From an uncultured Chloroflexia bacterium (GTDB lineage: Bacteria; Chloroflexota; Limnocylindria; QHBO01): a stretch of 64,000 nt of DNA. Where the stretch lies: NCBI GenBank assembly GCA_963770875.1, contig CAVYRE010000001.1, forward strand, positions 148,064-212,063, read 5' to 3'. The position numbers and the translations under genes are program-made. This document shows, piece by piece, positions 31,560 through 58,453 of the stretch. The notes under the pieces were generated by a model, which searched no databases, was not told the origin of the DNA, and saw nothing but the letters and a program-made list of their open reading frames with translations. Each line of letters begins with the position of its first letter. Position 1 is the stretch's first letter.

Positions 31560-31623
31560 CCCGACGTCGGCGAGAGTGTGCTAGCCTGTGCGCACATATC
31601 TGCACACTTCAGGAGACGGCCCG

Positions 31624-31866
31624 ATGGCCCTGGCCCGCACGAACCTGACCCTCCCCCAGGACCTCATGGCGGAGGTCGACGCCCTGGCCGGACCGCGCGG
31701 CCGAAGCCGATACGTGGCGGAGGCGGTCGCAGCCCGCGTGAAGCGCGACAAGCTCGGCAAGGCGATCCGCGAGACCGCCGGAATCCTCGTCGGGACGCCG
31801 TACCAGATGACGCGCGACGAGGTCACCGCCTGGGTCGACTTCCTGCGCTCCGAGGAGACCGATTGA
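31624..31866 (+). CDS. vapB: ribbon-helix-helix antitoxin (VapB-like)
   Basis: MALARTNLTLPQDLMAEVDALAG; AGGAGA 8 nt upstream; precedes PIN gene by 1 nt. Confidence 0.7.
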   Translation: MALARTNLTLPQDLMAEVDALAGPRGRSRYVAEAVAARVKRDKLGKAIRETAGILVGTPYQMTRDEVTAWVDFLRSEETD

Positions 31867-31867
31867 G

Positions 31868-32248
31868 ATGCGGTACCTCCTCGATTCCACGCTGCTGATC
31901 GACCACGCGAACCGCGACGAGCCCGCCGCCGAGTTGCTCGAGCGGCTCCACTCCGGGCCGCACGAGCTCTACACCTGCGACGTTGTCACCTGCGAGACGC
32001 TGTCTCAGGGCGACCCGGACCATCTGCGTCACCTACGGGTGCTGCTCGACGCCCTCGAATACGTCGCCACATCCCCAACGGCTGCCCGCTGGGCGGCGGC
32101 ATCGCGCCTGAAGCGACGCCGGGCTGGGGGCAAGTTCGGCCTGGGGGACTCGCTGATCGCCGGCGTGGCCGCCGAGCTCGGCGCCACGGTGGTTACCCGC
32201 AACCGCCCCGACTTCGAGCGGCAGGGGATCGAGGTCCTCAGCTACTAG
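31868..32248 (+). CDS. vapC: PIN-domain toxin VapC
   Basis: MRYLLDSTLLIDHANRDEP...GDSLIAGVAAELGATVVTRNRPDF. Confidence 0.8.
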   Translation: MRYLLDSTLLIDHANRDEPAAELLERLHSGPHELYTCDVVTCETLSQGDPDHLRHLRVLLDALEYVATSPTAARWAAASRLKRRRAGGKFGLGDSLIAGVAAELGATVVTRNRPDFERQGIEVLSY

Positions 32249-32283
32249 GCGGGTGTGCGGCTGGTGCCGAGGATCGCCCGCGG

Positions 32284-33213
32284 CTAGCGAAAGACCCGAA
32301 GGCTCCCCGGCTGGATCTCGAAGGTCACCGGCGTGATGCCGATCGACCGGCCATCGGCGTGGGCCGGCAGCACCCGCCTCGCACCGCGCACCGTCACCCG
32401 CTTCGCGCGCAGCACCTCCATCCGCGGCTCCTTCCGCTCGCGACCGCGTGCCACGCGCAGGAAATGGTGCACGACCTGGAGCTCGCTCATGCCGCTGAAG
32501 ATCGCGATGTCGAACAGTCCATCGGCCGGGTCCGCGTCGGGCACCAGGGCGAAGCCGAGCCCATGGTATGGACCGATGCACACGGTGATCGCCGGTGCCC
32601 GACGGTACAGCTCGCGACCGTCCAGCTCGATCACCATTCCGGTCCGGCGCCGCCGCAGCGCACGCCACATGGCGCGGATCGCGAACCGCCAGCCGGCCCG
32701 GCCACCGAGCTCCACCGCCCCGAAGCCGGCAGCGTCGAGGCCGACGCCGGCCGCCTCGAAAAACGAGGTCGCCCCCTGTGGCGAGCTTTCGTCCTGCGAG
32801 CCTGTGTGCCAGGCCAGGCCAGCATCGACCTGCACGACCTGCCCGCGGCCGATCACGTCGAGCGCCGGCTCGAGCTCGACGGGAATGCCGAGGGCGTGCG
32901 CGATGTTGTTCCACGAGCCCGTGGGGAGGATCCCCAAGGTCTTGTCGCTGCCGGTGAGCACCTCGGCCACCTGGCCCACCGTGCCATCCCCTCCGGCAAC
33001 CACCACGTCCTCGTCGGGCGCCGCGCCGCGGGCGACCACAGCTGGGTCGTCGGCGGCGAGGGCATGCAGCCGCACTCGAAGCCCGCGCTGCTCCAGCGCC
33101 GCGGCCAAGGCCGCAGGCTCGAGTGCCGCGGCGTCGCCTGAGAGCGGCGCTGTCGACCCGGGCTTCCCTCCGGAAACCGGGTTGACGATGAGGAGGATCG
33201 CGCGGCCGGTCAC
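32284..33213 (-). CDS. diacylglycerol kinase catalytic-domain lipid kinase (YegS/BmrU-like)
   Basis: LLIVNPVSGG...VVAGGDGTV...GILPTGSWNNIA. Confidence 0.8.
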   Translation of the reverse strand: MTGRAILLIVNPVSGGKPGSTAPLSGDAAALEPAALAAALEQRGLRVRLHALAADDPAVVARGAAPDEDVVVAGGDGTVGQVAEVLTGSDKTLGILPTGSWNNIAHALGIPVELEPALDVIGRGQVVQVDAGLAWHTGSQDESSPQGATSFFEAAGVGLDAAGFGAVELGGRAGWRFAIRAMWRALRRRRTGMVIELDGRELYRRAPAITVCIGPYHGLGFALVPDADPADGLFDIAIFSGMSELQVVHHFLRVARGRERKEPRMEVLRAKRVTVRGARRVLPAHADGRSIGITPVTFEIQPGSLRVFR

Positions 33214-33243
33214 GAACCGGCGTCGACCACGCCCCGCGTCTGC

Positions 33244-34392: not shown

Positions 34393-34446
34393 GGAATCCC
34401 TCCTTCGGATCTGATTGGACCGATGGTCGGCTCGTCCGGGCGACGA

Positions 34447-35147: not shown

Positions 35148-36353
35148 CTAGGACGCGGCCCGATGCGCGGCGGACAGGCGCATGGCGCCCGGAACGCCTT
35201 TGAGCTCCACCGGCCCGATCTCCGTGAACGTCACCCCTGCTCCGTCCGAGGCGTCCACCACGGCCTGGCTGACGACGACCTCACCGGGCCGCGCGTATTC
35301 GGCGATGCGCGACGCGACATTCACCGTCTGCCCGTAGTAGTCGCCCTCCTGGAAGATCACCGGACCCGCGTGCAGGCCGACATGTGCGGGCGGTAGTCCG
35401 GCCTCGGCCAGATCGGTGACCATCTCCAGGGCGGCCACCACGCCTGGACCCGGGTCGCGGAAGAAGAACATCACGCCGTCACCGAGCCATTTCACCGGCC
35501 GGCCACCGTGCTTTACCGAGGCCCGATGCACCAGTCGACCCAGCTCCTCGGCCAGGTCCGCCGCCGCCGCATCCCCCCGTTCCTGGGTGAGCCGCGTGTA
35601 GCCGGTGATGTCCAGGAAGCACATGGCAGGCGGTCGCTCGAGGCGGCTGGTGAGTCCCGCCGCGGCCAGCTCCCGCTCCCAGGCATCGATCAGGTTGGCG
35701 GTCACGGCATGCGCCTCGTGAGCGTGGTACATGGCGCGCCGCGCCTGGTCATTCAGCGGTGCGAATCGGGCGCGGAATTCGACCGCGATGGCCGCGATCT
35801 CGGCGCCGGCCTTGCCGGCGGCCCTGGGCGCGATGATCTCGCTCCGAAACCAGTCCGCCTCGACCTGGGCAACGCGCCGCATGCTGTCGCCGATGGCCCG
35901 CAGCGCGCGCTCGATGGTCGCCTGTTTGAACCCCGCCTCCACCTGGGCCTTGATGAGCGGCACGATGGCCATCTCGTCCTCGCGGACCCGGTCATCGGGG
36001 GTTGGCAGGGCGGCACCGATGGCCTCCCGGATGACCATCAGCAGGTCCACCGGGACCCCGCTCTTCGCACTCAGATCCGCAAAGGTCATCGGCGTGAACG
36101 AGGCGAAGCTATCGAAGGCCGGGCTGTCGAAGAAGGCGAGAGACATTTCACCCGTGCGCATCTGGCTCGCGATGCCCTCAAGCGGGATGCCCGCCACGAC
36201 GAAACTTTGGAGCAGGGCTACCCGCCGCACGTCGCCGGCCGAGAAGCGATCGCCCTCGCTCGGCTGGAGGATGCCGAGCTCCACCAGGCGGGTGACGGCG
36301 TCGACGCCGACCCCGGCGCGCTCCGCCGCCTCCTGCCTCGAGTAGTCGCTCAC
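35148..36353 (-). CDS. MerR-like HTH + class III adenylate/guanylate cyclase
   Basis: N-term MSDYSRQEAAERAGVGVDAVTRLVELGIL (HTH), C-term cyclase FLDITGYTRL...WLGDGVMFFF...GLHAGPVIFQEGDYYGQTVNVASRIAE. Confidence 0.8.
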   Translation of the reverse strand: MSDYSRQEAAERAGVGVDAVTRLVELGILQPSEGDRFSAGDVRRVALLQSFVVAGIPLEGIASQMRTGEMSLAFFDSPAFDSFASFTPMTFADLSAKSGVPVDLLMVIREAIGAALPTPDDRVREDEMAIVPLIKAQVEAGFKQATIERALRAIGDSMRRVAQVEADWFRSEIIAPRAAGKAGAEIAAIAVEFRARFAPLNDQARRAMYHAHEAHAVTANLIDAWERELAAAGLTSRLERPPAMCFLDITGYTRLTQERGDAAAADLAEELGRLVHRASVKHGGRPVKWLGDGVMFFFRDPGPGVVAALEMVTDLAEAGLPPAHVGLHAGPVIFQEGDYYGQTVNVASRIAEYARPGEVVVSQAVVDASDGAGVTFTEIGPVELKGVPGAMRLSAAHRAAS

Positions 36354-36391: not shown

Positions 36392-36742
36392 TCAGGAAGG
36401 GGCTCTGACGCGGATGCCAACGACCGCCGCGAAGTCGCCAGCGTTTCGTGTCACGAGGGTCAGCCGATGCTGAAGCGCCGTGGCGGCAATCAGCGCATCG
36501 GCCATCCCGATCTTCGACGAGCGACGCAGGCGACCCGCGCGTTCGGCCACGGGACGATCCACGGGAAGCTCCGTGAACGGGTCGAGCAGGCGCCGGACCC
36601 GGGTCTCCTCCGCGGGTCGTCCGGCAAAGAGCTCGGCGCGCGTGATGGACGACACGTGCACGTCGTCCTTGCCAGGTGCGAAACGGTGGTGACCGCGGAG
36701 ATGGTCGATGAGCACGTCGGTATCGACCAGGACGCGGGTCAC
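36392..36742 (-). CDS. vapC: PIN-domain toxin VapC
   Basis: VTRVLVDTDVLIDHLRG...IGMADALIAATALQHRLTLVTRNAGDF. Confidence 0.75.
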   Translation of the reverse strand: MTRVLVDTDVLIDHLRGHHRFAPGKDDVHVSSITRAELFAGRPAEETRVRRLLDPFTELPVDRPVAERAGRLRRSSKIGMADALIAATALQHRLTLVTRNAGDFAAVVGIRVRAPS

Positions 36743-36957
36743 CGATCCCACTCGCTGCGCGCCGGCACGAGGAGGTCGGGAATGGTCCCGAAGGTCTCGT
36801 CGAGCGCCGTCTCGACATCGGGCCGGTCATCGGCCAGATAGGTGTCCACGGCTTCGCGGATCATGCGCGCCATGGGCGCACCGGTTCGACGGCCGCGGAG
36901 ATCGAGCCGCTTGCGCTGATCATCGGTCAGATAGATCTGGGTTCTCACGCTCGCCAT
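36739..36957 (-). CDS. vapB: ribbon-helix-helix antitoxin VapB
   Basis: MASVRTQIYLTDDQRKRLDLRGRRTGAPMARMIREAVDTYL; 4-nt overlap with vapC. Confidence 0.7.
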   Translation of the reverse strand: MASVRTQIYLTDDQRKRLDLRGRRTGAPMARMIREAVDTYLADDRPDVETALDETFGTIPDLLVPARSEWDR

Positions 36958-38016: not shown

Positions 38017-38177
38017 GGGTCGCAGCCTACGCCGGTTCGTGGGTGGCGGCACCTGCTGCTGTCAGGGTCACTCGTGCAGTCGTGCTGCACGAAGCGTCAT
38101 GACGGCGGAACCGAGCCAGGCGGTGCCAGCTGAGCGATAAGGCGGGAGTAACTCGCCGTAAGTCCACTGCATTAGCC

Positions 38178-38206
38178 TTGACCAGGCTATGTCACTAGAC
38201 TATGCT
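38178..38206 (+). promoter_or_regulatory. candidate housekeeping-sigma promoter TTGACC-N17-TATGCT upstream of hicA-like ORF
   Basis: Seen in AT-richer stretch ...ccTTGACCaggctatgtcactagacTATGCTcgATGaag. Confidence 0.4.
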
Positions 38207-38208
38207 CG

Positions 38209-38424
38209 ATGAAGCGCGCGCGCGCTCATCCACCGGATCCGTACGGCGGCAGCCGCTCGAGACGTGCCGTGTCTCCTGGTCCGCGAAGGAAGCCGGCACG
38301 AGTTTTGGCAGGTCGGCCCGTTCTCGTCTCCATCCCGCGACACCGAGATATCAACGAATGGACGGCTGAAGGCATCATGCGCGACCTGGAACCGATGCTC
38401 GGCAAGGACTGGTGGCGACTGTGA
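38209..38424 (+). pseudogene. hicA: HicA-like toxin, frame disrupted near 38305
   Basis: N-part LLVREGSRHEFWQVG in one frame, C-part PVLVSIPRHRDINEWTAEGIMRDLEPMLGKDWWRL in +1 frame; single base missing in ggCCCgtt run. Confidence 0.5.
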
Positions 38425-39279: not shown

Positions 39280-39468
39280 TCAGTGGCCGAGGTGCCACCA
39301 GTCGCAGTAGCGACAGCGATACGGATGGAGCGAGCCGTCCTGGTGCCGGCCGTGGCGGGCCTCGCTCTTCGCCTCGCGGCGGGTGATGTAGAGCGCCTTC
39401 GAGGTGCAGCCGCGGTCGACCAGTGGCAGGTTCCGGTTGATGAGCTGTCGGTAGGGGATGACGGTCAT
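39280..39468 (-). CDS. small Cys-rich protein, C-terminus YRCRYCDWWHLGH (paralog 2)
   Basis: 62 aa; ~70% identical to 23801..23995; upstream region shares TTATCGG-YCCTTA and GACAG-N4-CTGTCG motifs with paralog 1. Confidence 0.55.
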   Translation of the reverse strand: MTVIPYRQLINRNLPLVDRGCTSKALYITRREAKSEARHGRHQDGSLHPYRCRYCDWWHLGH

Positions 39469-40273: not shown

Positions 40274-40573
40274 ATGCCCACTCCCACTACTCCCCCCAGG
40301 TCCCGCAGCTCATCGAGCTCGAAGGCGGCAGCCGACGCGGTCGGCAAGGCCATCGGGTCCATCCATCCCATCGTCAGCATGTGGCGCGACGGGCTGACCG
40401 TCATCGCGCTCGAGTCGAGCCTCGCCAATCGGGCTCCCGACTACCTCACCCTCGACCAGGCACAGGCCGATGCCGGCGTGCAGGTCCAGGAGGCCGCCAC
40501 GCAGACGGTGCCCTCGGTCGACGCCATCACCGGACCGATGCCGGTGCTCATCCTGGGCGGCCTCGAGAAGTAG
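40274..40573 (+). pseudogene. 5' fragment of a gene truncated at the left border of the low-GC islet
   Basis: Ends ...TLDQAQADAGVQVQEAATQTVPSVDAITGPMPVLILGGLEK* exactly where GC drops; reads like an N-terminal domain lacking its continuation. Confidence 0.4.
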
Positions 40574-40732: not shown

Positions 40733-42685
40733 TCAAGAATCCCCACGAGAATGAGCCCAACTGCCCCGACAACGCCCAACCAGCTCCGTCCCAGCGGAAG
40801 TTCGTAGGACGACCGTGATACTCGCGACGAGGATCAGCGGAGTAATTGCCCAATAGACTGCGGCGCCAATCCAACCAGCCCAACGGCGGGCGCGGCCGTC
40901 AATCTCGAGGTCATGGCGCCTAAGCGCTTCAATCGCGTTCGTAGCGGCAGCCTCGGCACTTGCGGTCTTCAGGTCGGCCTCTGCGCGAAGCGCATTGATG
41001 CGCACTTCATAGCTTGCGCCTAGCTCGTCGAGCTCAAAGTCCGCGCGTGCCTTGTAATCGGCGATGACTCGGTCGACGACCTCATCAAGCGTGCCCGCGT
41101 CCACGTCTTCCGGGTCGTCGTCGGGTTCTGCGGTGCGAAGGATCCTGTCCGAGACACTGGAGACGATAATTGCTGTCACCTGGTCGGGTGACAATCGATC
41201 TGCCTTGCGTAATTCATCAAGGTGCGCGAGGAATCGCCTCCACATCCTCGCCGAGGGTCGCATGGCCGCGGAGCAGAGAGCCACCAGCTGGCGGATTTGG
41301 TACTCGGAGCTCGCCACTGGCCTCTTCAGCCATGCAAGGTTGGCGAGTGCTCGAATGTGGACAATTGGGGGGACGCCCCCCTCCTTCTCGTCCTCCTCCC
41401 ACCAAACCGTTGTGTTCGTAATGACAAGGGGCGACGCGGTGGCAAAGACTACCCTCGCATCTTCAATTCGATAGGAACGGTGGCCCGCACGGAGGGTGAG
41501 CACTCCTGCAACAGAATCGACATCGTGTTCGACCCGAGGCTCCGCGATGTCATGTGTTCGTGGATCAGCTAATCGGCTTGCGAGCTTGGCTTCATCTTGT
41601 GTGTATCGAGCGACGTGTTGTGGCGCACGCCTGATGGTTAACCCCGCGGATTGAATCTCGCCTTCAAGCAACGCAGACATTTCCTGAACGTCGCTTGGCG
41701 CGTACCGTTGCGTCAGGAAATGTCGAGCCATTGACGAAGGACGAAGACTTTGTCGGCCGACCGAGGTGGCCAACTTGTCCTGGTACATCCGCAGAATCCG
41801 TTGGATCTCCTGCACGGTCTTATCGAACACCATGCAACGGATGCCGCTCGCCGCAAGGAGATCAATCGTGTCGCGCATCATCAGCCGCGGCGCAGTTCCT
41901 TCATACCCAAGCGCCTGACGCACTAGAACGGAGTCAAATACGACCGTCAGATCGACAAATCGGCGTGAGACCTCGTTGATGTCTGGCAGGAATGCGGCGT
42001 GGTAGAGGACGAGACCTTCGAGTAATCCCTGCAAGACTCCCTTGAGGCCGCGGTCCTGCTCAACCGTCTCCTCGAGGAACTGCGCAACCAGTAACGACTC
42101 GGATTTGCTGAGACCGGGCACCTCATGCTCCTCGGTCACGCCAAGAATGAGCGAAACCTGATGCTCCTCGAGGAAACGGAAAATAAGGTCGAGGGCACTC
42201 TTGGCTGTGTGCTCTAGCGTCGCGTGCTTGCGAACGTGCTCCGCAAGGGCGGCTCCTAGGCGAAGCTGCCCTGCCTCGACTGCCGCCTTGGTTTCCGAGA
42301 CATCCGGGGCCGAGAGGTCCTTGCCCGGACTGACCCTGAACCTCCCCGCATCTCTCTCTAGAATCCCGCGCCGAGCGGCGCGTTTCAGAAGGGTGCTGAC
42401 AGTCTCTTGTGGCATCGCAATGCCGTGACGGGCGGCGACCCCCTCCTGGATATCCGCGACCGTGAAATATCGACTTGGTTCGACCGACACCGCATCGAGG
42501 ACCAACGGCGAGAACATGCCAAGCTGGTCCTCCCCCTCGTCCAATCGCGCCTTAAGGAATGCCACAGTTACGAGTCCGCCGGCGCCCACGCTTGGTTTCC
42601 TCTCGGTCATCGGCCGAGCCTCACCGGTGAGGTCATTCCGTTGCTCCCGGTGAGCTTCGCTCGTTATCCGGTCATCCTCATTCAT
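40733..42685 (-). CDS. large (650 aa) uncharacterized protein with C-terminal hydrophobic helix; partner of Mrr-like nuclease
   Basis: Start MNEDDR overlaps upstream stop (GATGAATGA); lower GC/codon bias; wH-like stretch FTVADIQEGVAARHGIAMPQETVSTLLKRAARRGIL; no P-loop; C-term WAGWIGAAVYWAITPLILVASITVVL. Confidence 0.7.
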   Translation of the reverse strand: MNEDDRITSEAHREQRNDLTGEARPMTERKPSVGAGGLVTVAFLKARLDEGEDQLGMFSPLVLDAVSVEPSRYFTVADIQEGVAARHGIAMPQETVSTLLKRAARRGILERDAGRFRVSPGKDLSAPDVSETKAAVEAGQLRLGAALAEHVRKHATLEHTAKSALDLIFRFLEEHQVSLILGVTEEHEVPGLSKSESLLVAQFLEETVEQDRGLKGVLQGLLEGLVLYHAAFLPDINEVSRRFVDLTVVFDSVLVRQALGYEGTAPRLMMRDTIDLLAASGIRCMVFDKTVQEIQRILRMYQDKLATSVGRQSLRPSSMARHFLTQRYAPSDVQEMSALLEGEIQSAGLTIRRAPQHVARYTQDEAKLASRLADPRTHDIAEPRVEHDVDSVAGVLTLRAGHRSYRIEDARVVFATASPLVITNTTVWWEEDEKEGGVPPIVHIRALANLAWLKRPVASSEYQIRQLVALCSAAMRPSARMWRRFLAHLDELRKADRLSPDQVTAIIVSSVSDRILRTAEPDDDPEDVDAGTLDEVVDRVIADYKARADFELDELGASYEVRINALRAEADLKTASAEAAATNAIEALRRHDLEIDGRARRWAGWIGAAVYWAITPLILVASITVVLRTSAGTELVGRCRGSWAHSRGDS

Positions 42686-46442: not shown

Positions 46443-46620
46443 TAGCGAGACGCGGGAGGAGTACGACTTCCGCACCGGAACCCGAGGCCACCATCATCGC
46501 AAGGTGGCTGGGGAGGGCCGGTTGGTCCGCCTCGACCCTGATGTGGCGGTGCGGTTTCCGACGTCTGAAGCAGTGAACGAGGCCCTGCGGTCCCTGCCTC
46601 GTCGCCGACCCCAGGACTGA
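46423..46620 (+). CDS. brnA: BrnA-family antitoxin
   Basis: Small protein overlapping brnT 3' end, EEYDFRTG... typical BrnA context. Confidence 0.65.
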   Translation: MTMKKSDSETREEYDFRTGTRGHHHRKVAGEGRLVRLDPDVAVRFPTSEAVNEALRSLPRRRPQD

Positions 46621-46698: not shown

Positions 46699-46974
46699 AT
46701 GGCCAATCCCCGAACGGTTCAGATCCGGGGTCGCGGCACCGTGACCCTGCCGGCCAGGATCCGCGAGCGATACGACCTCGCCGACGGTGACCCGCTGACG
46801 CTGGTCGACCTCGATGGCGCCATTCTGCTCTCGCCCAAGACGAGCGTCGTCGACAAGCTGTCGGCGGAGATCGAGTACCTGATGAAGGGATCGGGCCTGA
46901 GCCTCGACGAGCTGCTCGGTGGGCTGCGCGAAGAGCGCGCGCGGTACCACGCCGACCGCCTTGAGCGCCGATAG
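46699..46974 (+). CDS. AbrB/MazE/SpoVT-family antitoxin
   Basis: VQIRGRGTVTLPARIRERYDLADGDPLTL swapped-hairpin motif. Confidence 0.7.
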   Translation: MANPRTVQIRGRGTVTLPARIRERYDLADGDPLTLVDLDGAILLSPKTSVVDKLSAEIEYLMKGSGLSLDELLGGLREERARYHADRLERR

Positions 46975-47338
46975 GCCTCGGGCCCGCCTTCGAATCTGCC
47001 TGGACGCCGATACCCTATTCGCGCGGGCCGCGTCGAACACGGGGGCGAGCCACCTGATCCTCCAATTGGGCGAGCTTGGGATCATCGAGATCGGCGTGCC
47101 GGAAGCAGGCCAGAGGGGAGGCTGAGCGCAACCTCGCCACCAAGCTGCCCGCCTCCCTGCCGGCGTTTCGGGCCTTGCTGGACGCCTGCTGCATCGGCCT
47201 GCCGATGGCGCCGGAGGCGGTATCGGTCGCCATCGCAGGGTCCGGCGAAGCCGACGCGAAGAACGCCCCAATCCTCGCGGCAGCTGAGTGACTTCGTCGA
47301 GGCACTGCGGGGCGAGCTGCTGCAGCTGGGACGCTAGG
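46961..47338 (+). pseudogene. PIN-domain (VapC-like) toxin remnant with frame disruptions
   Basis: RICLDADTLFARAAS...HLILQLGELGIIEIGVPEA in one frame, ...AFRALLDACCIGLPMAPEAVSVAIAGSGEADAKNAPILAAAE in another. Confidence 0.4.
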
Positions 47339-49454: not shown

Positions 49455-50445
49455 TCAAGCATCGGCCTCGAGCATCGCGGCGATCTCGCGGGCGTTGGTG
49501 GTGCCGTAGTTGGCGTAGCAGTTGTTCATCAGCAGGTGCACGTTCTGGGCCGATGCCGCCGCCTGCCGGATGCGGGGGACCCATTCGCCCAGCTCATCGG
49601 CGTCGTAGAGGTAGCGGAAGCGCTCGACCACCGGGATCCCCTTGGCCTCCCAGGTCTCGGTGCGCCGGCCATGGAAGCGGACCACCGCGAGGTTTGGCGA
49701 GGTGACGGCGACGATCGGCGGCAGGGCGGTCTTCGTCTGCGGCTCGTCGACCATCACGAACGGGATCTCGTACTTCTCCAGGAAGCTGATCGTCCGCTCG
49801 GCGTTCTTCTCGTTGAACCAGGTGTTGTTGCGGAATTCGACCGCCAGGCCGATGTCGCCCGAGCCGCTCCTTCGCCTCCACGATCGCGTCGCGGCTCTCG
49901 TTGGAGGGGAAGAACCAGCGCGGGTACTGGAGGAAGACGGCGCCCAGCTTGCCCGCCGAGTGGAGCGGCGCGATCCCGTCCTTGAACGCCTCCCAGATGG
50001 CGGTGCGAAGCTCCTCCGGCAGGTCCTTGCCGTAGATGCGGGTCTTGCCCTGCAGCTCGATGGGCAGCTCCTCGCGGATCTCCTTCGGCAGCCGCTTGAC
50101 CTCCGACGGCTGGGCGGTCATCAGGGCGTGGGCCTTGATGTCGAAGGTGAAGTCGGGCGGGGTGCGCTCGAGCCACAGCTCGCCCAGCCGCCGGGTCGGC
50201 AGGGCGTAGTAGGTGGCGTCGACCTCGACGATCGGGAACTGGTCGGCGTAGTAGCGCAGCCTCTCTTCCGCCGTCGTGGCGTCCGGCGGGTAGAAGACGC
50301 CCGGCTCGACCATGGTCGGATCGGTCCAGCTCGCGGTGCCGATGCGGACCGTCGCCGTGTCCACGCTGAGCGGGTGCCGCGCGGCCTCGACCTGCGCCTC
50401 GCCGCGCTCGGCGGAGGCGATCGGTCCGGGGTCGTGGTCCGTCAT
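49455..50445 (-). CDS. DUF72 (UPF0759) family protein, two frame disruptions
   Basis: MTDHDPGPIASAERGE... N-part, middle ...DIGLAVEFRNNTWFNEKNAERTISFLEKYEIPFV, C-part MVDEPQTKTALPPIVAVTSPNLAVVRFHGRR in three frames; one lesion is an extra G in ctcGGGcgac. Confidence 0.6.
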
Positions 50446-53400
50446 CACGTTTCGACGGCGCCGCGGACCTCGTCGACCTCGAACAGGAAGAGCTGCGCGT
50501 CGCACTCGATGAGGATCTCGCGGGCGCGGTCCAGGACCTCCGCGGGGTCCTCGCCGATCCGGGTCATCGCGCGGCCGAGGTCGACCATGGCCAGCGCGGC
50601 GCAGACGCGCATCTCGAGGCGCTCGAACTCAGCCACCGCCTCCCGAAGGATCGCCACGGCTCGTTGGGGATCGGGCACGAGCAGGCCCGCGATGTTGCGG
50701 GCGTGGGCTGCGCTCTGAACCGAATCGGTCGACGCGTCCACGTCGCGGAAGGTGGCGGCAAGGGCGGTGTCGCCTGCCAGCAGGAGCGCCCGGACGCACT
50801 CAGTGAAGGCCTCGGGGTTCGTCTCGACGCTGTGCGCGCGGACCAGCAGGGCGGATTCGACGAACTTCTTCGCCGCCAGGGCCCGGTCATGCCGGCCCTG
50901 CGCGATGTACGCGTCGAGCGCCGCGATGAAGTAGGCGGCCTGCGGCTCCGGGTTGGCCAGCAGGAGCCGCTCGGACTCGTTGCGAATTTCCAGCCCCTCG
51001 TCGATGCGTCCGCGCATCAGCACGGCCGCGGCCAGTGCTCCCAAACGCTGACCCGTCAGTGGCTCATCCGTGGCCCGCCTGGCAAGGTCAACGGCCTGCC
51101 GCTGATAGCGCTCCGCTTCCTCCAGGCGGCCGAGAAGGAGCATCGTGTCGCCCAGGCTTCCCGCGATCCACCCGCTCATCTGGATGATCCCGGCGCGCAA
51201 TGCGAGCTCGAGTCCCTCCATCAGGACCTCGGCGGCAGCCGTCGGACCAGGTGAGGCGCCCCGAACGGTGGAGAGGTTGTTGTAGGCTCGGAAGAGGTTG
51301 CTGGTGTCGCCGGCCTCTTTGGCCAGGATGAATGCCTCCTCCATGAGCCGACGGAATTCGGCGAACCTCCCGAACGACAGCTGGCAGACCGCCAGCGTCT
51401 GGGTGGCCTCCGCGCGAACGAGCTTCGCGTCCACCCGCGCCGCCATCTCGATGGCCCTGCGCAGGAGCGGATCGGCTTCAGGCAATCGCCCTCGTCGCCA
51501 GAAGAACCAGCCGAGCCGATGGAGCGCGTCGGCGAGATCGGCACTCTCTCCGAGCGGCTCGAGCGTCTCGATCGCGATGCGGCCAGCCTCCTCAGCTTCG
51601 TCGTGCCTCGACTGCTGCATGAGCGCGATGACGAGTCGGGCATTGACCCATCCGACGCCGCCGAGGTCGCCTGCCGCCGTGAAGATCTCGATGGCTCGAC
51701 GGGCCACGCGCTCGTTCTCGGCGCTGCTGTCCGGCCCGCCCGTTGTCGCCACGTGCTCTCGCGCGAGCGGCGCTCGCTCGGCCGCTGGGATGTCGAGGCG
51801 GTCGGCCAGCCGTTCTGCCTCCCGGAACCAACGGGTGCTTTCGGCAACCAGACTCAGCCCGCGGGTACGGCGAGCAGCCGCCCATGTGTCCCCGAACGCC
51901 TTCCGCTCGACGTCGGGACGCCGCTCCCCCAGCTCCTCGAGGTAGCGGAGCGCCTCGACCTCGTGGGTGGCGATCAGCTCGGCGATCTCCTCGGCACGGT
52001 CGCCGGCCCGCTGCTCCGCCCAGCGGGCAACGCCCAGGTGCATGTCGGCGCGGAGCGATTTCGGCAGCGAGTCGTACGCACCGTCCCGGATCAGGGCGTG
52101 ACGGAATGCGAACTCGTGCTCGTCGCGGAAGGAGGAGGGTTCGTGTTGGGCGATGAGCTCCTTGACCCGGAGCCGGCCGAGCGCGTCGCGCACCTCGCCG
52201 ATCGCCTTGCCGGTCAGCTCGACGACCGCGCCGACCCAGAAGACGCGGCCCACCACGGCCGCGTCCTGGAGGACCTGCTTCTCGTCGTCGGGCAGGCCGT
52301 CGAGGCGCGCCGCGATGAGGCCCTGCACGGAGCGGGGGAGCTCCAAGCCGGCGAACGGTTTGGCGACCTCCCAGCTGGACGCATCCGTGGCCCGCAGCAC
52401 CCCGTCGTCGATCAGCTTGCGGACGATCTCCTCGACGTAGAGGGGGTTGCCCTCGCTCCGCTCGACGATCGTCCGCTTGAGCTCCGCCTGAATCGGCCCC
52501 GGCAGCAGGTCGTCGAGCATCGCCGCGCCCTCGGTGGCCGAGAGGGGATCGAGATAGATCGAGGTCGCGTTCCGCTTTCCGCCGCCCCAGGTGGGGCGCT
52601 TCTCGAACAGCTCGGCGCGGGCAGTCGCAATGACCATGATCGGGCCCTGCGCCCAGTCCGAGACATGCTCGATGAAGTCGAGCAGGCCGTCATCGGCCCA
52701 TTGGATGTCCTCCAGCACCAGGACCAGCGGGTAGCGCGCTGCCAGCCGCTCCAGGAATCGTCGCCACGCTTCGAACAGCTCCTCGCGGCTCAGGTCGCGC
52801 GACTCGCCGGCGCCGACCAGCGCGCGCAGCTGCGGCGCGATGCTGTCGTCACCGAACAGCTCCCGGGCGGCGGCCTCCGCCTTCCCCGCCGCGACTTCGG
52901 CGGTGTCGTCGTCGAAGATCTCGCATTGCGCCTTGATGGCGTCGGCGAGCGCGGAGTAGGAGGTGTTGCCATAGGCCAGGCATCGGCCCCGCCGCCAGTA
53001 CGCGATCTCCGGCAGGGGCTCGACGTAGCGCTCCAGCTCAGCGATCAGGCGTGACTTGCCCACGCCCGCCGGCCCGATGACGGTCACCAGGGCGGGCTGT
53101 CGATCGGTCTGGACCCGATGGAAGGTCTGGGTGAGGACCGCCAGCTCCTCGTCGCGCCCGACCATGGTCGCCTCCAGGCCGAGGCGCGGGCGCTCGCCGC
53201 GGGTCCGGGCCTTGATGCGCAGGGTGCGCCACGCCGGCACCGGCTCGGCCTTGCCCTTGAGGTCGAGCGGGGAGAGCTCCTGATACTCGATGACGTCCTT
53301 CGTGCTGGCGTGGACGCTTGGGCCCACCACCACGTGGCCGGGTTCTGCCGCCGTCTGGAGCCGGGCGGCCGTGTTCACCGCATCGCCGGTCAGCATCCGG

Positions 53401-53866
53401 TCCCGCGGCCCGGACGCGCGTTCGACGTCGACCAGCACCTCGCCGGACTCGATCCCGATCCGCATCCCGAGCGTCGGCTTACCCTCGGCGGCGAAGCCGC
53501 GGTTCAGCTCGGAGAGGATCGCCTGCATCTCGAGGGCTGCGCGTACGGCGCGCTCGGCGTCGTCCTCGTGCGCACGAGGGACGCCGAAGACGGCCAGGAT
53601 GCGTCGCCCATGAACTTCTCGAGCAGTCCCTCGTGGCGCCCGATCTCCTCTGCCATCCGGTCGAAGGTGCGGCCGATGACCGACTGCACGACCTCCGGAT
53701 CCTCGCGCTCAGCGAGGGCCGTGGAGCCAACGAGATCGGCGAACAGCGCCGTGGCGAACTTGCGCTCCTTGCGCGTGGTGTGCGCCGCGGTGAGCGTCGT
53801 GCCGCAGGCGTTGCAGAAGCGGGCGCCTTCCGGATTCTCCTGGCCGCACGAGGGGCACGTGAGCAT
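50445..53866 (-). CDS. zinc-ribbon + class III nucleotidyl cyclase + STAND/AAA ATPase + TPR regulator (about 1140 aa), one frame disruption near 53587
   Basis: MLTCPSCGQENPEGARFCNACG; cyclase FADLVGSTAL...KFMGDA|ILAVFGVPRAHEDDAERAVRAALEMQAI (one base missing); P-loop VIGPAGVGKSRL; long TPR-like C-terminus. Confidence 0.75.
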
Positions 53867-53997
53867 GTGCGAACCCTACGCCACGCGGCCTCGCCGCAAC
53901 AGGGCGCTCGAGTCGGTGGCGCCCGGCCTCGACCTGCGCCTCGCAGCGCTTGGCGGAGCCGATTGGACTCCCGGCCGATGTGCTACCGTTGTGCGTC

Positions 53998-54303
53998 ATG
54001 AGCCCTCAGAAGCGCAGGCCGGATCGAGTTGGGGTTCGCGAGCTGCGCCAGAACCTGTCCGTCTACCTCAAGCATGTGCGCGAGGAGGGGCGCGCCTACG
54101 AGGTGACGGAACGGGGCGAGCCGGTGGCCCACCTGACGCCCCTGCCGGATCGGCCCACCTCGACCTACGAGCGGATGCTCGCGGAGGGCAGGATCACGCT
54201 CGCCACGCGGCGCTGGGAGGAGATGCCCGAGCCGTTGCCGCCCGTGCACGGCAAGCAGGTCTCCGAGGTGCTGCGCGAGATGCGCGACGAGGAGGAGTGG
54301 TGA
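53998..54303 (+). CDS. Phd/YefM-family antitoxin
   Basis: RVGVRELRQNLSVYLKHVREEGRAYEVTERGEPVAHLTPL. Confidence 0.75.
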   Translation: MSPQKRRPDRVGVRELRQNLSVYLKHVREEGRAYEVTERGEPVAHLTPLPDRPTSTYERMLAEGRITLATRRWEEMPEPLPPVHGKQVSEVLREMRDEEEW

Positions 54304-54695
54304 AGGGTCGCGTCTACCTGGACGCGTCGGCGGCGGTCAAGCTCGTCGTCAGCGAGCCGGAGTCGAAGTCCCTGAGGGGTTTCGTGGATGACCGCGTGGC
54401 GCGGGTGAGCAGTCGCGTGCTGGCGGTGGAGCTGCTGCGCGCTGTGCAACGTGCCAACCCGGCCTCGCTGGGCCAGGCGCAGTCCCTCCTCAGTGTCTTG
54501 GAGTTCGTGGAGCTGGACGTGTCGATCGCCGCCCGGGCGGCCGCCCTGGAGCCCCCCGGCCTGCGATCGCTGGATGCGATCCACCTGGCCTCCGCCCTCG
54601 AGCTGGGCGACGAGCTCGATGCGTTCGTCACCTACGACGCTCGGCAGGCGGATGCGGCCCGGGCGCTGGGCCTCACGGTATCGTCGCCCGCATGA
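54300..54695 (+). CDS. vapC: PIN-domain toxin VapC
   Basis: GTG start overlapping antitoxin stop; VKGRVYLDASAAVKLVVSEPESK...SLDAIHLASAL. Confidence 0.8.
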   Translation: MKGRVYLDASAAVKLVVSEPESKSLRGFVDDRVARVSSRVLAVELLRAVQRANPASLGQAQSLLSVLEFVELDVSIAARAAALEPPGLRSLDAIHLASALELGDELDAFVTYDARQADAARALGLTVSSPA

Positions 54696-55844
54696 CGGAG
54701 CGACGGTCGCGCATCCAGCTTCGCCTCCCGGGCCTTCGGCGCGGCGCCGAGCCCGATCCGCATGCCACGGCCCCCGAACACACCATGGAGCCCGGCCCGG
54801 AGCCCGAGCCGGTGCCGGTCGAGCAGAGCGTGGTGGATGCCGCCATCTATCGCGACGGCGCGCGGACCAGGTCTCCGGCCACCGTGGCCGATACGGCCGC
54901 CCAGCTGCGGGCGACGCCGGGCGCCATGGCCTGGATCGGGCTCTTCCGCCCGGACCCGCGCCAGCTGCACGCCGTGGCCGAGGAGTTCGGGCTGCACGAG
55001 GTGGCCGTCGAGGACGCCATCGTCGCCCATCAGCGCCCAAAGCTCGAGCGCTACGACGAGATCCTCTTCGTCGTCCTGCGCGCCGCCACCTACCTCGACG
55101 ATGTCGAGGAGGTCGAGTTCGGGGAGATCCACGTCTTCATCGGTCCTGACTTCATCATCACCGTTCGCCACAGCGCGACCCCGGACCTGCACGCGGTGCG
55201 CAGTCGCATGGAGGCCGATCCCGGATCTCCTCCGCCTGGGCCCCGAGGCGGTCCTGTACGCGATCCTGGACGGCGTGGTGGACGGCTACGCCCCGGTGGT
55301 GGCGGGGCTCCAGAAGGACATCGACGAGATCGAGACCGAGGTCTTCGGCGGCGACCCGAAGGTGAGCCGTCGCATCTACGAGCTGTCGCGCGAGGTGATC
55401 GACTTCCAGCGCTCGGTCCGGCCGCTGCTCGGCATGCTGAGCGGCCTCGAGCAGGGGTTCGAGAAGTACGGGACCGATGAAGAGCTACGCCGCCGCCTGC
55501 GCGACGTGGCCGACCACACCACCATCGTCGCGGAGCGCGTCGACGGCTTCCGCCAGATGCTGTCCGACATCCTGACGGTCAACGCCACGCTCGTGAACCA
55601 GGCCCAGAACGAGGAGATCAAGGCGCTCACGGTCAGCACCTTCAACCAGAACGAGCAGGTCAAGCGGATCAGCGCCTGGGCCGCGATCCTGTTCGCCCCG
55701 ACCCTCATCGGCACCGTCTACGGCATGAACTTCCTGGACATGCCCGGCCTGCGCGAGCCGTGGGGATTCGCGTTCTCGGTGGCCCTGATGCTCGGCGTCA
55801 GCCTGGGGCTGTACCTCGTCTTCCGGCGGCGCGGCTGGATCTAG
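54692..55844 (+). CDS. corA: magnesium/cobalt transporter CorA, frame disrupted near 55215
   Basis: YGMNF motif and two C-terminal TM helices; junction ...RSRMEADP|DLLRLGPEAVLYAILDG requires removal of one G (cccGgatc). Confidence 0.8.
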
Positions 55845-55852
55845 CCGTCGAC

Positions 55853-56164: not shown

Positions 56165-56205
56165 GTCGCCTCCTCTTGCCCTAGTTCGGGAGATATAGCT
56201 CGCGA

Positions 56206-57471
56206 TCACCAGTTCGAGCTGGTGGCCGGCCAGGCACTGTAGGCCCAGTCGATGATGCTTGGCGCTTCCGTGCCGCTCATCACGTTGTAGACCATCGGCT
56301 TCAGCTGGCTCCCGTCCGCGCACCCGGTGTTGAGGCTCTCGGCCATGAGCCACAGCTGACTGTTGTTCAGGAAGACCGGGTAGTTGTGAGCGCCGGAGCC
56401 GATCCGTTTCGGGCTCCCGCCGTGCGCGAGGTCAACGAGGTAGACGTCGTGGAGGTAGTTCGGGATGTCGACCGCGTAGGCGAGGAAGCGTCCATCGGGT
56501 GAGATGGTGGGGTAGTACCAGGTGACGCCGGTGAGGAACCGCTGCGCGGTTGCGCCGCTCGTCCATTTCCAGATGTCCGTGCCCTGGCGGTAGTAGAGCG
56601 CATCGCCGGTTGGAGACCAGACCGCCATCGCCGGCCAGTTCGGCTCCGTCCAGTCACCTGCCGGCGGGAGCACCGAGAAGACCACGGTGCCGCCGTCCAC
56701 CACGAGGAGGCTGGCCTGGGTCTGAAGCGGCTGGTTCAGGACGTAGAGCCGGTTGCCCGATGGGGTGAACTCGCCATATCTCGAGTCGTCGGGCGAGCTG
56801 CATCGGCCCTCGTTCGTGTCGAGCAGGGTGGCGACGACACGGTCGCCGGCTGCGGTGGTGATGTGGATCATGTCGCTGCGGCTGCCCTGCGGGTCCACCG
56901 ACCGCCACACGATCTGGTCGAGCGCCGGAGAGACGGTGATCAGCTCCGAACCCCAGCCCGGAGTGAGCGGCAGCTGGAACCAGTGGAAGCGCACCTCCGG
57001 CAGGTCGACCACCGCGCCGGCCCTGCCGGCGTTGATCAGGGCGTGCCGGCTATCGATGAGCTGCATCGGCGAGGCGCCCAGGTTGCAGACCGTCGTGGGA
57101 TGCGCCACGTCTGCGTAGTCGCGCAGCACGAAGTCGCCTGGCTTCTCCGGCGTCCCATGCAGCTGGACGACCGCGACCGGGTCCTGCGCACCGATCGGCC
57201 CCGTACAGGTCACGGCGTTGAGACCCGTACCCGGCGGCTCGCTGCCTGGCAGGACCGGGAACGAGTCGCTTCTCGGGCCAGGGATGCCGGTGGGGAGCGC
57301 GGTTGGCGAGGGGACCTGCGGGGAAGTGCTCGCCGCGACGCTGCTCGACGCAGGGATCGAGGGGGAAGTGGTCTGTTGCAGCGCGGCGCGGCACCCGCCG
57401 ACCGCCAACACCAGCGTCATGCCTGCAACCACCCCGGCGAATCGCTGGGTTGTCCCTCCCCGGTCAACCAC
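56206..57471 (-). CDS. lipoprotein with beta-propeller (TolB/WD40-like) region
   Basis: Lipobox LAVGGC; Pro/Ser-rich linker; repeated propeller-like blades (YYRQG, WSPTGD, ISPDGRFLAYAV). Confidence 0.6.
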   Translation of the reverse strand: MVDRGGTTQRFAGVVAGMTLVLAVGGCRAALQQTTSPSIPASSSVAASTSPQVPSPTALPTGIPGPRSDSFPVLPGSEPPGTGLNAVTCTGPIGAQDPVAVVQLHGTPEKPGDFVLRDYADVAHPTTVCNLGASPMQLIDSRHALINAGRAGAVVDLPEVRFHWFQLPLTPGWGSELITVSPALDQIVWRSVDPQGSRSDMIHITTAAGDRVVATLLDTNEGRCSSPDDSRYGEFTPSGNRLYVLNQPLQTQASLLVVDGGTVVFSVLPPAGDWTEPNWPAMAVWSPTGDALYYRQGTDIWKWTSGATAQRFLTGVTWYYPTISPDGRFLAYAVDIPNYLHDVYLVDLAHGGSPKRIGSGAHNYPVFLNNSQLWLMAESLNTGCADGSQLKPMVYNVMSGTEAPSIIDWAYSAWPATSSNW

Positions 57472-57544
57472 GCCGGCAGCCTACTCCTGGGTTTCAGCGA
57501 TGAACAGAGGCACGCGAGCGCTGGCGCCCACCTGCGCGCTCGCG

Positions 57545-57672
57545 TGGTCATGGGATGGTTACAACGGGGAAGATGAGTCGCCCTGATCGTCGGGGGAGTC
57601 ACGGGGTGACTATTCGGCGGTCAAGGGCCGTCGATCCGGCCCTTCTTCGCCGTTGTGGTCACCAGGTGGCTG
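57545..57672. repeat. MITE-like element with ~20-bp terminal inverted repeats (family B, copy 1)
   Basis: GTGGTCATGGGATGGTTACAACGGGGAAG ... CTTCGCCGTTGTGGTCACCAGGTGG; homologous in inverse orientation to 61885-62018. Confidence 0.6.
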
Positions 57673-57815
57673 CGGCGCAGCCCCGAACCCATTGGCTCGG
57701 TCCCTCTGGCCCGCTTCAACCGGGCGTGGACCATGAGCGCCGCCAGAAGCTCGTGGAACGGGCCTCTACGCGGACGCGGATTGACACCCGGATCCGGACC
57801 CATCATGCTGTGCGC

Positions 57816-58076
57816 ATGACGACCAAGGAGAAGCGGACCTACAACCTGACCGCGGCGACGGTGCGTGCCGTCCGCGAGCTGGCGGACGAGTACCACGCCG
57901 CTCCCACCCAGGACGCGGTGGTGGAGCTGGCCGTCTCGGAGCTGGCTCGCCGGCTGCGGGACGAGGCGGAGTCGGCGGCCTGGGAGAAGGCGGCTGCGGA
58001 CGCAGCGTTCCGCGCTGAGGCGCAGGAGATCGAGGACGCCTACCACGGCGCCGATCGCGAGACGTGGCCGGCCTGA
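57816..58076 (+). CDS. ribbon-helix-helix antitoxin
   Basis: MTTKEKRTYNLTAATVRAVRELADEYH...; track ORF N-extension lies inside the MITE-like repeat and is not coding. Confidence 0.6.
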   Translation: MTTKEKRTYNLTAATVRAVRELADEYHAAPTQDAVVELAVSELARRLRDEAESAAWEKAAADAAFRAEAQEIEDAYHGADRETWPA

Positions 58077-58453
58077 GCATCGGGCCCTTGCGCTGGGGGG
58101 TCGTGGTGGTGGCGCTCGACCCGGTCAAGGGCCACGAGCAGGCGGGGACCCGCCGCGCGCTGGTGGTCTCGTACGAGCCGTTCCATCGGTCCGGGCTGAT
58201 GACGGTCTGCCCGATCACCGCTGCCCGATCCGAGGCGCGCTATCCCGGCGACGTGCCGCTGCCTGCCGGCCTGGCCGGCCAGACGAAGGCGGGGGTGATC
58301 GTCTGCAGCCAGGTCCGCACCATCTCCGCGCATCGGCTGCGCGGCGCGCCGGTGGGATTCCTGACCGATGCCTCCCTGCGTCGTCGCGTGCGCCAGGCGC
58401 TTGCTCATCACCTGGGCCTGGACGTCCCCGCGGTCGTGGACGCCACGGCGTAG
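58064..58453 (+). CDS. MazF/PemK-family toxin
   Basis: VVALDPVKGHEQAGTRRALVVSYEPFHRSGLMTVCPITAA...SQVRTISAHRL. Confidence 0.7.
   Translation: MAGLSIGPLRWGVVVVALDPVKGHEQAGTRRALVVSYEPFHRSGLMTVCPITAARSEARYPGDVPLPAGLAGQTKAGVIVCSQVRTISAHRLRGAPVGFLTDASLRRRVRQALAHHLGLDVPAVVDATA

Follow-up and report, generated by a model that had tools for sequence, protein, structure and literature searches.

A probable toxin–antitoxin hotspot with eight predicted type II modules in a Limnocylindria-type Chloroflexota genome

Regions in which many type II toxin–antitoxin (TA) modules lie close together are known from Mycobacterium tuberculosis, with its VapBC- and MazEF-rich regions, and from the TA cassettes of the Vibrio superintegron. 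M. tuberculosis carries about one TA locus per 50 kb, a density at which 27 kb should hold about 0.5 loci. Here we describe eight TA-like gene pairs in about 27 kb of a 64-kb stretch of contig CAVYRE010000001.1 from an uncultured Chloroflexia bacterium. This whole 64-kb stretch is called the window below, and positions are counted from its first letter. Our preferred reading, to which we give a probability of roughly 80%, is that the region is a TA-rich, recombination-prone chromosomal stretch of a Limnocylindria-type Chloroflexota that carries eight independent type II TA operons. Judged from their reading frames, six of the modules look intact and two look as though an inactivated toxin gene (hicA and a PIN_3 gene) has been left beside a retained antitoxin open reading frame (ORF). 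The components of the pairs are given below, where RHH stands for ribbon-helix-helix; L001, L018–L020 and L023–L025 denote the loci or contigs of relatives used for comparison, L025 being a short-read contig.

31588–31866, plus strand: pair 1 antitoxin, RHH/CopG-like (VapB type); Pfam RHH_1, E 5e-4, 20.4 bits against a cut-off of 20.5
31868–32248, plus strand: pair 1 toxin, VapC-type PIN; Pfam PIN, E 1.7e-12, 48.4 bits
36739–36957, minus strand: pair 2 antitoxin, RHH; Pfam RHH_3, E 5e-6, and RHH_1, E 2e-5, both above their cut-offs
36392–36751, minus strand: pair 2 toxin, VapC-type PIN; Pfam PIN, E 6.2e-17, 62.8 bits
38209–38424, plus strand: pair 3 toxin, apparent hicA-like pseudogene; aligns with the intact 71-aa genes that precede HicB in L018, L019, L020 and L025
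38412–38885, plus strand: pair 3 antitoxin, HicB-like, 157 aa; N-terminal HicB fold followed by a C-terminal helix-turn-helix
39559–39780, plus strand: pair 4 putative toxin, divergent DUF4258-like (BECR/RelE superfamily); weak family-wide matches to PF14076
39768–40043, plus strand: pair 4 putative antitoxin, DUF2283 (YuzE-like); Pfam DUF2283, E 8.5e-9
46170–46442, plus strand: pair 5 toxin, BrnT (DUF497); Pfam BrnT_toxin PF04365, E 4.7e-26, 91.4 bits against a cut-off of 34.5
46423–46620, plus strand: pair 5 putative antitoxin, unnamed family, 65 aa; adjacency to BrnT
46699–46974, plus strand: pair 6 antitoxin, AbrB/MazE-type, intact ORF; Pfam MazE_antitoxin PF04014, E 3.4e-8, 33.8 bits against 24.7
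46991–47291, plus strand: pair 6 toxin remnant, PIN_3 type; frame break near 47070–47104, about 45 C-terminal residues gone
53950–54303, plus strand: pair 7 antitoxin, Phd/YefM; Pfam PhdYeFM_antitox, E 5e-8
54300–54695, plus strand: pair 7 toxin, VapC-type PIN; Pfam PIN, E 5.5e-14, 53.3 bits
57816–58076, plus strand: pair 8 putative antitoxin, conserved 86-aa protein; adjoins MazF in relatives
58064–58453, plus strand: pair 8 toxin, MazF/PemK; Pfam PemK_toxin PF02452, E 1.9e-21, 76.7 bits against 23.1, profile positions 2–108 of 109

Genes were called by third-position GC, and all 16 components were scanned against Pfam and NCBIfam. Matches above the curated Pfam cut-offs were obtained for the three PIN toxins, PemK/MazF, BrnT, DUF2283, PhdYeFM, MazE/AbrB and the RHH protein at 36739–36957 (RHH_3 and RHH_1); HicB, the DUF4258 candidate, the partners of BrnT and MazF and the PIN remnant gave no match in these direct scans. 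The two genes overlap by 4–20 nt or are separated by a 1-nt gap in seven of the eight pairs. All eight modules were found at, or within a few codons of, the coordinates of the original prediction, whose claim of eight TA-like pairs in about 27 kb is thereby confirmed, with families backed by several types of evidence. That prediction was staked on profile searches, and these did not go against its family calls: all toxins and most antitoxins are supported by a profile, a fold or a homologue.

The density of TA genes in the 27 kb exceeds chance. Filtering for small ORFs (50–165 aa, high third-position GC) returned 18 in these 27 kb; nine have a TA-family match, which in eight lies above the curated score. 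The filter overlooked the PIN gene at 54300 and the RHH gene at 36739. The same filter gave 16 small ORFs in the other 37 kb of the window, none of them with a TA family, and TA genes are confined to 31.6–58.5 kb within the window. Ten related 21-kb loci (214 kb in all) supplied 52 small ORFs, and there is no TA family among the matches listed for them, which cover 25 of the 32 Pfam families.

Three of the modules are of VapBC type. The toxins of pairs 1, 2 and 7 all exceed the PIN (PF01850) cut-off of 23.6 bits, and their candidate acidic active-site residues, read by eye from the translations with no structural alignment, are D6/E43/D94/N112-D115 in pair 1, D10/E40/D85/N103-D106 in pair 2 and D8/E45/D92/D113 in pair 7. 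In pair 1 the antitoxin gene, which probably starts at the ATG at 31624, stops 1 nt ahead of the PIN gene, and in pair 2 the RHH and PIN genes share 13 nt. In pair 7 start and stop codons overlap by 4 nt (GTGA), and the antitoxin may start further downstream, near 53998; its product shares 82% identity with its counterparts in L001 and L025, and the toxin 79% with that in L001. Pairs 1 and 2 had been called VapBC and pair 7 Phd/VapC, and these names hold, with every PIN toxin, the RHH protein of pair 2 and the PhdYeFM protein above the Pfam cut-off and the RHH protein of pair 1 0.1 bit below it.

Going by what is known of their families, the predicted toxins would comprise VapC PIN nucleases, MazF, BrnT, HicA and a DUF4258 protein of BECR fold. 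A small labile antitoxin would bind and neutralise a stable RNase toxin in each module, and the DNA-binding domain of the antitoxin (RHH, AbrB, Phd or helix-turn-helix) would repress its own operon. Loss or degradation of the antitoxin would then release the toxin, which would cleave tRNA, rRNA or mRNA and arrest growth. The modules can be pictured as addictive selfish cassettes that would accumulate and shuffle in one tolerant region, here beside a decayed block of methyl-directed restriction and HNH genes, with single cassettes being gained, lost or swapped between strains. They may stabilise the region or aid abortive-infection defence.

Several points weigh against this picture of eight TA operons. 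Toxicity, neutralisation and autoregulation are all read from family membership, and three of the proteins (the partners of BrnT and MazF, and the DUF4258-like protein) match no curated family above threshold. The DUF4258/DUF2283 pair is a prediction and is not known to be an experimentally validated TA system, and none of the papers searched mentions DUF4258 together with DUF2283. The baseline for TA density amounts to about 250 kb, not whole genomes, with 25 of 32 Pfam families listed. Finally, the reading of hicA as a dead toxin gene depends on two 1-nt indels in an assembly rich in frame breaks.

The antitoxin of the HicAB module, pair 3, has no match to the Pfam HicB model, and a single-sequence search of the PDB was also empty. 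When an AlphaFold2 model built with 26 homologues (pLDDT 87.5) was compared with the PDB using Foldseek, the top seven matches were all HicB-family structures (1wv8, probability 0.98; 6hpb_B, from E. coli HicAB; two chains of 6u0i, a HicB3; and, from Burkholderia, 6g1c and two chains of 6g1n), with weak E-values of 0.08–0.2; the sequence profile touches 6g1n at E 0.068. Among 191 homologues, several are labelled ‘RNase H-like HicB family nuclease’ by JGI and one ‘HicB family antitoxin’ by NCBI. The modelled fold thus identifies the protein as a predicted HicB.

The gene upstream was interpreted by comparison with relatives. On the three metagenome contigs L018–L020 the gene ahead of HicB encodes 71 aa and overlaps it by 4 nt. 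Compared with the relatives' intact genes, the window copy has one base too many near 38218, within a (GC)n run, and one base too few near 38319, and its ORF is still 71 codons long, with residues ~5–37, including the conserved REG..HEF segment and G..H, out of frame. The encoded ORF has no Pfam match and lacks a HicA_toxin (PF07927) domain with the catalytic histidine; the reconstructed protein reaches HicA_toxin at E 2.5e-4 and 21.5 bits, under the cut-off of 27. The intact L018 copy gives no HicA_toxin match and the L025 copy a weak precomputed one. From these alignments the window gene appears to be a divergent HicA-like gene that is inactivated here. The earlier description of the pair as HicB with a frameshifted HicA was right about HicB, by fold, and about the frameshifting, by alignment, and needs correcting in that there are two compensating shifts, not one.

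Upstream of hicA, at 38170–38210, a palindrome (TAGCC-TTGACC(A/T)-GGCTA) lies over a −35-like box and is conserved in L018–L020. A TATGCT or TATCCT hexamer follows after 17 nt, only 2 nt ahead of the hicA ATG. This arrangement suggests a leaderless hicA promoter operated by HicB. The palindrome and −35-like box are kept in the window, and it is plausible that HicB is still expressed.

The second broken toxin gene belongs to pair 6. Its antitoxin also matches TIGR01439 (AbrB) at E 3e-7 and 30 bits against a cut-off of 28.3. The remnant beside it gives no Pfam match in either frame or in reconstruction, and a complete PIN_3 domain was not found in it; it was recognised through BAZ83685, a Sphaerospermopsis plasmid protein that matches PIN_3 at E 2.9e-8. 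In tblastn, residues 3–40 of BAZ83685 align in one frame and residues 29–99 in another, with nothing past 99, and the two-frame reconstruction is 39.8% identical to BAZ83685 over 98% of the length. The antitoxin resembles, in an unscored comparison by eye, the product encoded upstream of the intact PIN_3 gene on that plasmid. The remnant is separated by 42 nt only from the end of the GMC oxidoreductase gene. Because about 45 C-terminal codons are absent and just these 42 nt are left before the next gene, the truncation is not a base-calling artefact. Comparison with the intact homologue thus indicates a dead toxin and an orphan antitoxin, in keeping with the original prediction of a decayed pair of an AbrB-type antitoxin (here by its MazE/AbrB Pfam match) and a PIN remnant (here through the intact PIN_3 homologue).

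Frame breaks extend to neighbouring genes. The following genes of the surroundings bear on the reading of the region:

40733–42715, minus strand: 660-aa ORF in the lower-GC stretch, sharing 38 nt with the restriction gene
42678–43992, minus strand: AspBHI-like methyl-directed restriction endonuclease, not TA; in three reading frames, Pfam RE_AspBHI_N and Mrr_cat
44006–44915, minus strand: HNH_2 endonuclease pseudogene, not TA; the 303-aa L025 HNH_2 protein aligns in several frames
47334–48782, minus strand: GMC oxidoreductase gene

Between 42678 and 46097 the AspBHI-like, HNH_2 and zinc-type alcohol dehydrogenase (ADH) genes are broken, and all three are intact in the collinear L025. The intact 454-aa AspBHI-type homologue of L025 aligns to the window gene in three frames (two frame breaks), the HNH_2 pseudogene has at least two frame breaks, with indels of 11, 4 and 3 nt in the nucleotide alignment, and the ADH lies in four frame pieces (three breaks) compared with the 327-aa ADH of L025. 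Listing frameshifts from a frame plot of codon-position GC proved too noisy, owing to strand ambiguity, and was replaced by tblastn of homologues. By this approach at least 15 frame breaks in the window are confirmed against homologues. The number rises to at least 18 with three that are suggested by reading-frame composition and split domains only, one each in an MFS transporter gene, the AAA_16-TPR cyclase gene and a gene near 60.6 kb. Non-TA genes with confirmed breaks include those for CorA, DUF72, a glycosyltransferase (two), a membrane protein, ADH (three) and a cyclase paralogue; positions such as 21793, 29007–29417, 34559, 49857, 53504–53528 and 55221–55249 serve as examples. The breaks represent either unusually common pseudogenes or long-read assembly indels.

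The likely source of the sequence matters here. The closest relatives of the GMC oxidoreductase (best 75% identical) come from Candidatus Limnocylindria/Limnocylindrales or from ‘uncultured Chloroflexia’ metagenome-assembled genomes (MAGs) of the MFD series, and MFD (Microflora Danica) genomes derive from deep Nanopore sequencing of soils (PMC12313526). An actinobacterial origin, first considered because of the GC content, was rejected, as these relatives are Chloroflexota. The window is very probably from a long-read MAG of a soil Chloroflexota, and its frameshifts therefore need cautious reading. The alternative that survives best, a live possibility short of even odds, is that the cluster is real and its decay mostly artefact, so that the frameshifts in hicA, PIN_3 and their neighbours are long-read indel errors and all eight pairs are intact in the cell. 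Such errors would be in line with the Nanopore origin of the nearest genomes (PMC12313526), with the many confirmed frame breaks in non-TA genes, with 1-nt indels in both directions between the window and L024, and with the location of the DUF72 break in a C-run. They would not explain the PIN_3 truncation, which base-calling error cannot produce, or the 11-, 4- and 3-nt HNH indels, and several of the 1-nt indels insert a different base instead of changing homopolymer length (for example at 45129 and 45930). In addition, BrnT, AbrB and the 71-aa fragment show an identical arrangement of ORFs in the Logan assembly of run ERR12037362, which may or may not be independent of the MAG data. Assembly error may underlie isolated 1-nt frameshifts, those of hicA among them, but does not underlie the truncation of PIN_3 or the HNH indels of several bases. 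Because the window holds at least 15 frame breaks and is probably a long-read assembly, decay read from single-base frameshifts is unsafe. The original statement that several pairs are decayed is accordingly narrowed: two toxins are broken and the PIN_3 truncation is secure, and decay by single-base frameshift, as in hicA, is not safely established.

In pairs 4, 5 and 8 one partner is less readily classified than the other. The genes of pair 4 share 13 nt. The downstream product matches DUF2283 (PF10049) at 35.9 bits against a cut-off of 23, and JGI calls its homologues YuzE. No Pfam annotation is precomputed for any of the 74 homologues of the upstream 73-aa candidate; the candidate has no Pfam match itself, a single-sequence PDB search was empty, and its family profile retrieved only designed repeat proteins or noise from the PDB. 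Individual scans of 31 homologues with a relaxed threshold gave PF14076 for 25 of them, the best at a weak E of 7.3e-5, and this was by far the commonest family. On this pattern the protein is taken as a divergent DUF4258-like protein. A DUF2283 gene is also found downstream of a DUF4258-like gene in L025, and homologues of the two proteins occur on contigs of matching size. Thus, the DUF2283 half of the original DUF4258/DUF2283 call stands by Pfam, and the DUF4258 half is reached via the sub-threshold homologue matches only. A 2025 review places DUF4258 among the BECR-fold type II toxins of the RelE/ParE superfamily, with its target listed as unknown (PMC11980606).

The 86-aa partner of MazF in pair 8 has 401 homologues without family annotation and adjoins MazF in L001, L023 and L024. 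It has no match in Pfam, NCBIfam or a PDB profile search, the last of which returned designed repeats or noise. In an AlphaFold2 model (pLDDT 79) a conserved extended N-terminus (KRTYNL) is followed by two helices, an arrangement compatible with an RHH monomer; a Foldseek search with this model gave nothing significant (best matches at E >4, Arc repressor at rank 40). The pair had been called RHH/MazF: the MazF assignment stands by Pfam and the adjacency is conserved, with an RHH fold of the partner unproven.

The BrnT partner in pair 5 belongs to a large family, with 876 representatives at 50% clustering in an exhaustive search, that is characterised by the motifs EYDF..G.RG and LDPDVA..FP.SEAVNEALR. 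The window protein matches no Pfam or NCBIfam model, BrnA (PF14384) included; a single-sequence PDB search was empty and the family profile gave designed repeat proteins or noise only in the PDB. When 64 members were scanned, four matched BrnA_antitoxin (best E 0.079) and six VapB_antitoxin, all weakly, and four of ten sampled members are named by their sources, as hypothetical. We fetched 80 metagenome loci with relatives of the partner, using 11 close sequences, and 72 had sufficient upstream sequence; in 65 of these 72 a BrnT homologue lies directly upstream on the same strand, as it does in a Kovacikia plasmid. The pairing is solid and the ‘BrnA’ label is not confirmed, so that from the earlier BrnTA call BrnT (by Pfam) and its pairing are retained, with a partner that is not Pfam BrnA.

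These partners raise the alternative that some pairs are not TA modules at all, the DUF4258-like/DUF2283 and 86-aa/MazF-like genes being small regulators or other two-gene modules. We consider this unlikely. The absence of curated family matches for three of the partners, the non-significant fold search for the MazF partner and the absence, among the papers searched, of any that links DUF4258 with DUF2283 would all fit such a reading, whereas MazF, BrnT and DUF2283 are strong Pfam matches, DUF4258 is classed with BECR/RelE type II toxins (PMC11980606), and the partner genes are tightly coupled (13–20 nt overlaps) with conserved adjacency.

Turning to the surroundings, G+C is about 70% in the window and dips to 58–64% at 41–45 kb only, being window-typical elsewhere. 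The lower-GC stretch holds the restriction and HNH genes. The AspBHI-like gene matches PADLOC mREase_II at E 2e-85 over profile positions 146–433 only, and a fragment of the HNH_2 pseudogene matches PADLOC HNH at E 4e-7; among ten neighbouring proteins compared with PADLOC, the restriction enzyme was the sole strong match. The 660-aa ORF has no Pfam, PADLOC or PDB match and is not present on L025. It has distant homologues (21–27% identity) on plasmids of Hymenobacter, Arthrobacter, Sporosarcina, Pantoea, Klebsiella and Enterococcus faecium, all annotated ‘hypothetical’ among the matches listed, and it may be a so far unrecognised defence gene. Close by, a 99-aa ORF (40274–40573, plus strand) matches the N-terminal part of ARPP-1, a domain associated with conflict systems, below the cut-off (E 1.8e-4, 21.4 bits against 27) and may be a further gene remnant.

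The AAA_16-TPR adenylate-cyclase gene was considered as a Pycsar-type defence gene and rejected, its PADLOC matches being weak (E 3.6e-5 or worse) and limited to the cyclase domain. This gene is flanked by a 57-nt direct repeat (50368–50424 and 53910–53966, 86% identity). The close strain represented by L024, whose flanks are 93–96% identical in nucleotide sequence, lacks 50444–55844 (cyclase, Phd/VapC and CorA), and in place of this block carries, at L024 positions 1060–1762, a canonical HicA (~66 aa)/HicB_lk (71 aa) pair. Together, the repeat and the L024 gap suggest insertion or deletion by recombination at the cyclase site.

Further repeats were observed in the window. MerR-type adenylate cyclase paralogues at 21544–22729 and 35148–36353 (both minus strand) form nucleotide repeats of 71–86% identity, the left copy being frameshifted near 21793. 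Paralogous Cys-rich proteins of 62–64 aa (motif ...RYCD.WHL) are encoded at 23801–23995 and 39280–39468, both on the minus strand, with 76% nucleotide identity. The second copy is located between HicAB and the DUF4258 pair; neither has a Pfam match, and this second copy also has none in NCBIfam or PADLOC. A 104-nt intergenic repeat occurs three times (24153–24256, 26797–26900 and 30046–30149; 68–72% identity) and a 122-nt repeat twice (57547–57668 and 61890–62011; 70% identity), neither belonging to an Rfam family.

A synteny comparison with relatives, proposed along with the original prediction, showed that most modules are not strain-specific, the Phd/VapC block absent from L024 being the case of difference within a close strain. 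HicAB, DUF4258/DUF2283, Phd/VapC, MazEF and BrnTA (as a remnant) recur in shuffled order in L001, L018 and L025 at about 50–85% protein identity. L001 carries, within 4 kb of a GMC gene 75% identical to that of the window, a Phd/RelE-like pair, Phd/VapC (79–82%), a MazF pair (49–53%) and a fused BrnTA remnant. In L018 DinB is followed by HicAB, and the 9.8 kb of L025 hold DUF4258-like/DUF2283, HicAB, DinB, the AspBHI-type gene (454 aa), HNH_2 (303 aa), ADH (327 aa) and Phd. In the window itself non-TA chromosomal genes (diacylglycerol kinase, glyoxalase, DinB, GMC oxidoreductase and CorA) are found among the TA pairs; neither a tRNA gene nor an Rfam match turned up in the whole window, and integrase and transposase domains are absent from those of its proteins that were compared with Pfam.

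It is quite improbable that the 27 kb are foreign and strain-specific, as a horizontally acquired mobile island or degraded integrative element with the TA genes as its addiction modules: the lower GC at 41–45 kb with its restriction and HNH genes, the homologues of the 660-aa ORF, found only on plasmids of unrelated phyla, the missing 50444–55844 in L024 and the 57-nt repeat bracketing the cyclase gene could be taken that way, whereas the window has no tRNA gene, the proteins scanned include no integrase, transposase or relaxase, GC outside 41–45 kb is at window level, ordinary chromosomal genes are interleaved, and five TA modules together with AspBHI/HNH/ADH recur in L001, L018 and L025 at only 50–85% identity.

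The region looks instead like a persistent, recombining TA/defence hotspot and not like one recently imported mobile island. Long residence, rather than a recent single import, is indicated because the modules and the AspBHI/HNH/ADH genes recur in relatives that are about 50–85% identical. The original description of the DNA as accessory or defence-island-like was broadly right, given the confinement of TA genes to 31.6–58.5 kb, the adjoining lower-GC AspBHI/HNH stretch and the block swap in L024; its remark that the pairs are interleaved with pseudogenes and a low-GC islet also holds, the AspBHI and HNH genes being broken and GC falling to 58–64% at 41–45 kb.

The arrangement itself is well known and of textbook type. 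Its description documents a dense, lineage-conserved but shuffling TA/defence hotspot in Limnocylindria, abundant uncultured soil Chloroflexota, and we know of no description of TA systems from this group. Candidates of interest are the BrnT-partner family, the DUF4258-like/DUF2283 pair and the 86-aa MazF partner. Mild new leads are the BrnT-partner family and, if real, the hicA double frameshift. We propose, tentatively and at less than even odds, that the BrnT partner represents an undescribed class of BrnT antitoxin and that the double frameshift has disarmed the toxin while the length of the ORF was kept. If so, the catalytic segment of HicA would be destroyed with ORF length, promoter/operator palindrome and translational coupling preserved, and HicB would still be made, as an orphan regulator or anti-addiction factor. 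For long-read MAGs in general, ‘decay’ by single-base frameshift needs a read-level check before it is given a biological reading.

Compared with HicAB of E. coli (6HPB) and Burkholderia pseudomallei (6G26), pair 3 shares a HicB whose N-terminal HicB fold precedes a DNA-binding domain, and a toxin gene that lies upstream and overlaps, with the G..H motif retained in the window's intact relatives. It differs in that HicA falls below the Pfam cut-off even when intact, in that the window copy is scrambled by two compensating frameshifts, and in that the C-terminal domain of HicB is a helix-turn-helix of sigma-70 region 4 type. Pair 6 has the two-gene architecture of the AbrB/SpoVT antitoxin and PIN_3 toxin of Sphaerospermopsis kisseleviana (BAZ83684/BAZ83685), with an antitoxin that is like BAZ83684 by eye and a remnant with the 39.8% identity to BAZ83685 given above; in the window, by contrast, the toxin is frameshifted and lacks its last ~45 residues, leaving the antitoxin an orphan. 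Pair 5 resembles BrnTA of Brucella abortus (PF04365, PF14384) in its clear BrnT (E 4.7e-26), in the toxin-first gene order given for BrnT in PMC11980606, and in a C-terminal motif of the partner that is loosely like those of RHH antitoxins. However, that partner fits neither PF14384 nor any other Pfam or NCBIfam model, and its family is large and unnamed.

At the level of the whole region, defence islands in the sense of Makarova, Wolf and Koonin offer a parallel in the placing of TA genes beside an AspBHI-type modification-dependent enzyme, an HNH nuclease and the 660-aa gene at lower GC; the window differs from them in that its restriction and HNH genes are pseudogenes and that ten neighbours gave one strong match in PADLOC. 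With the VapBC/MazEF-rich regions of M. tuberculosis and the TA cassettes of the Vibrio superintegron it shares the packing of unrelated type II modules in a variable region, the turnover of cassettes from strain to strain and the presence of orphan or decayed members. Unlike the Vibrio superintegron, the window has no integron integrase or attC sites and its host is an uncultured Chloroflexota; and in contrast to both clusters its modules are interleaved with metabolic genes, in a set that is conserved in relatives 50–85% identical.

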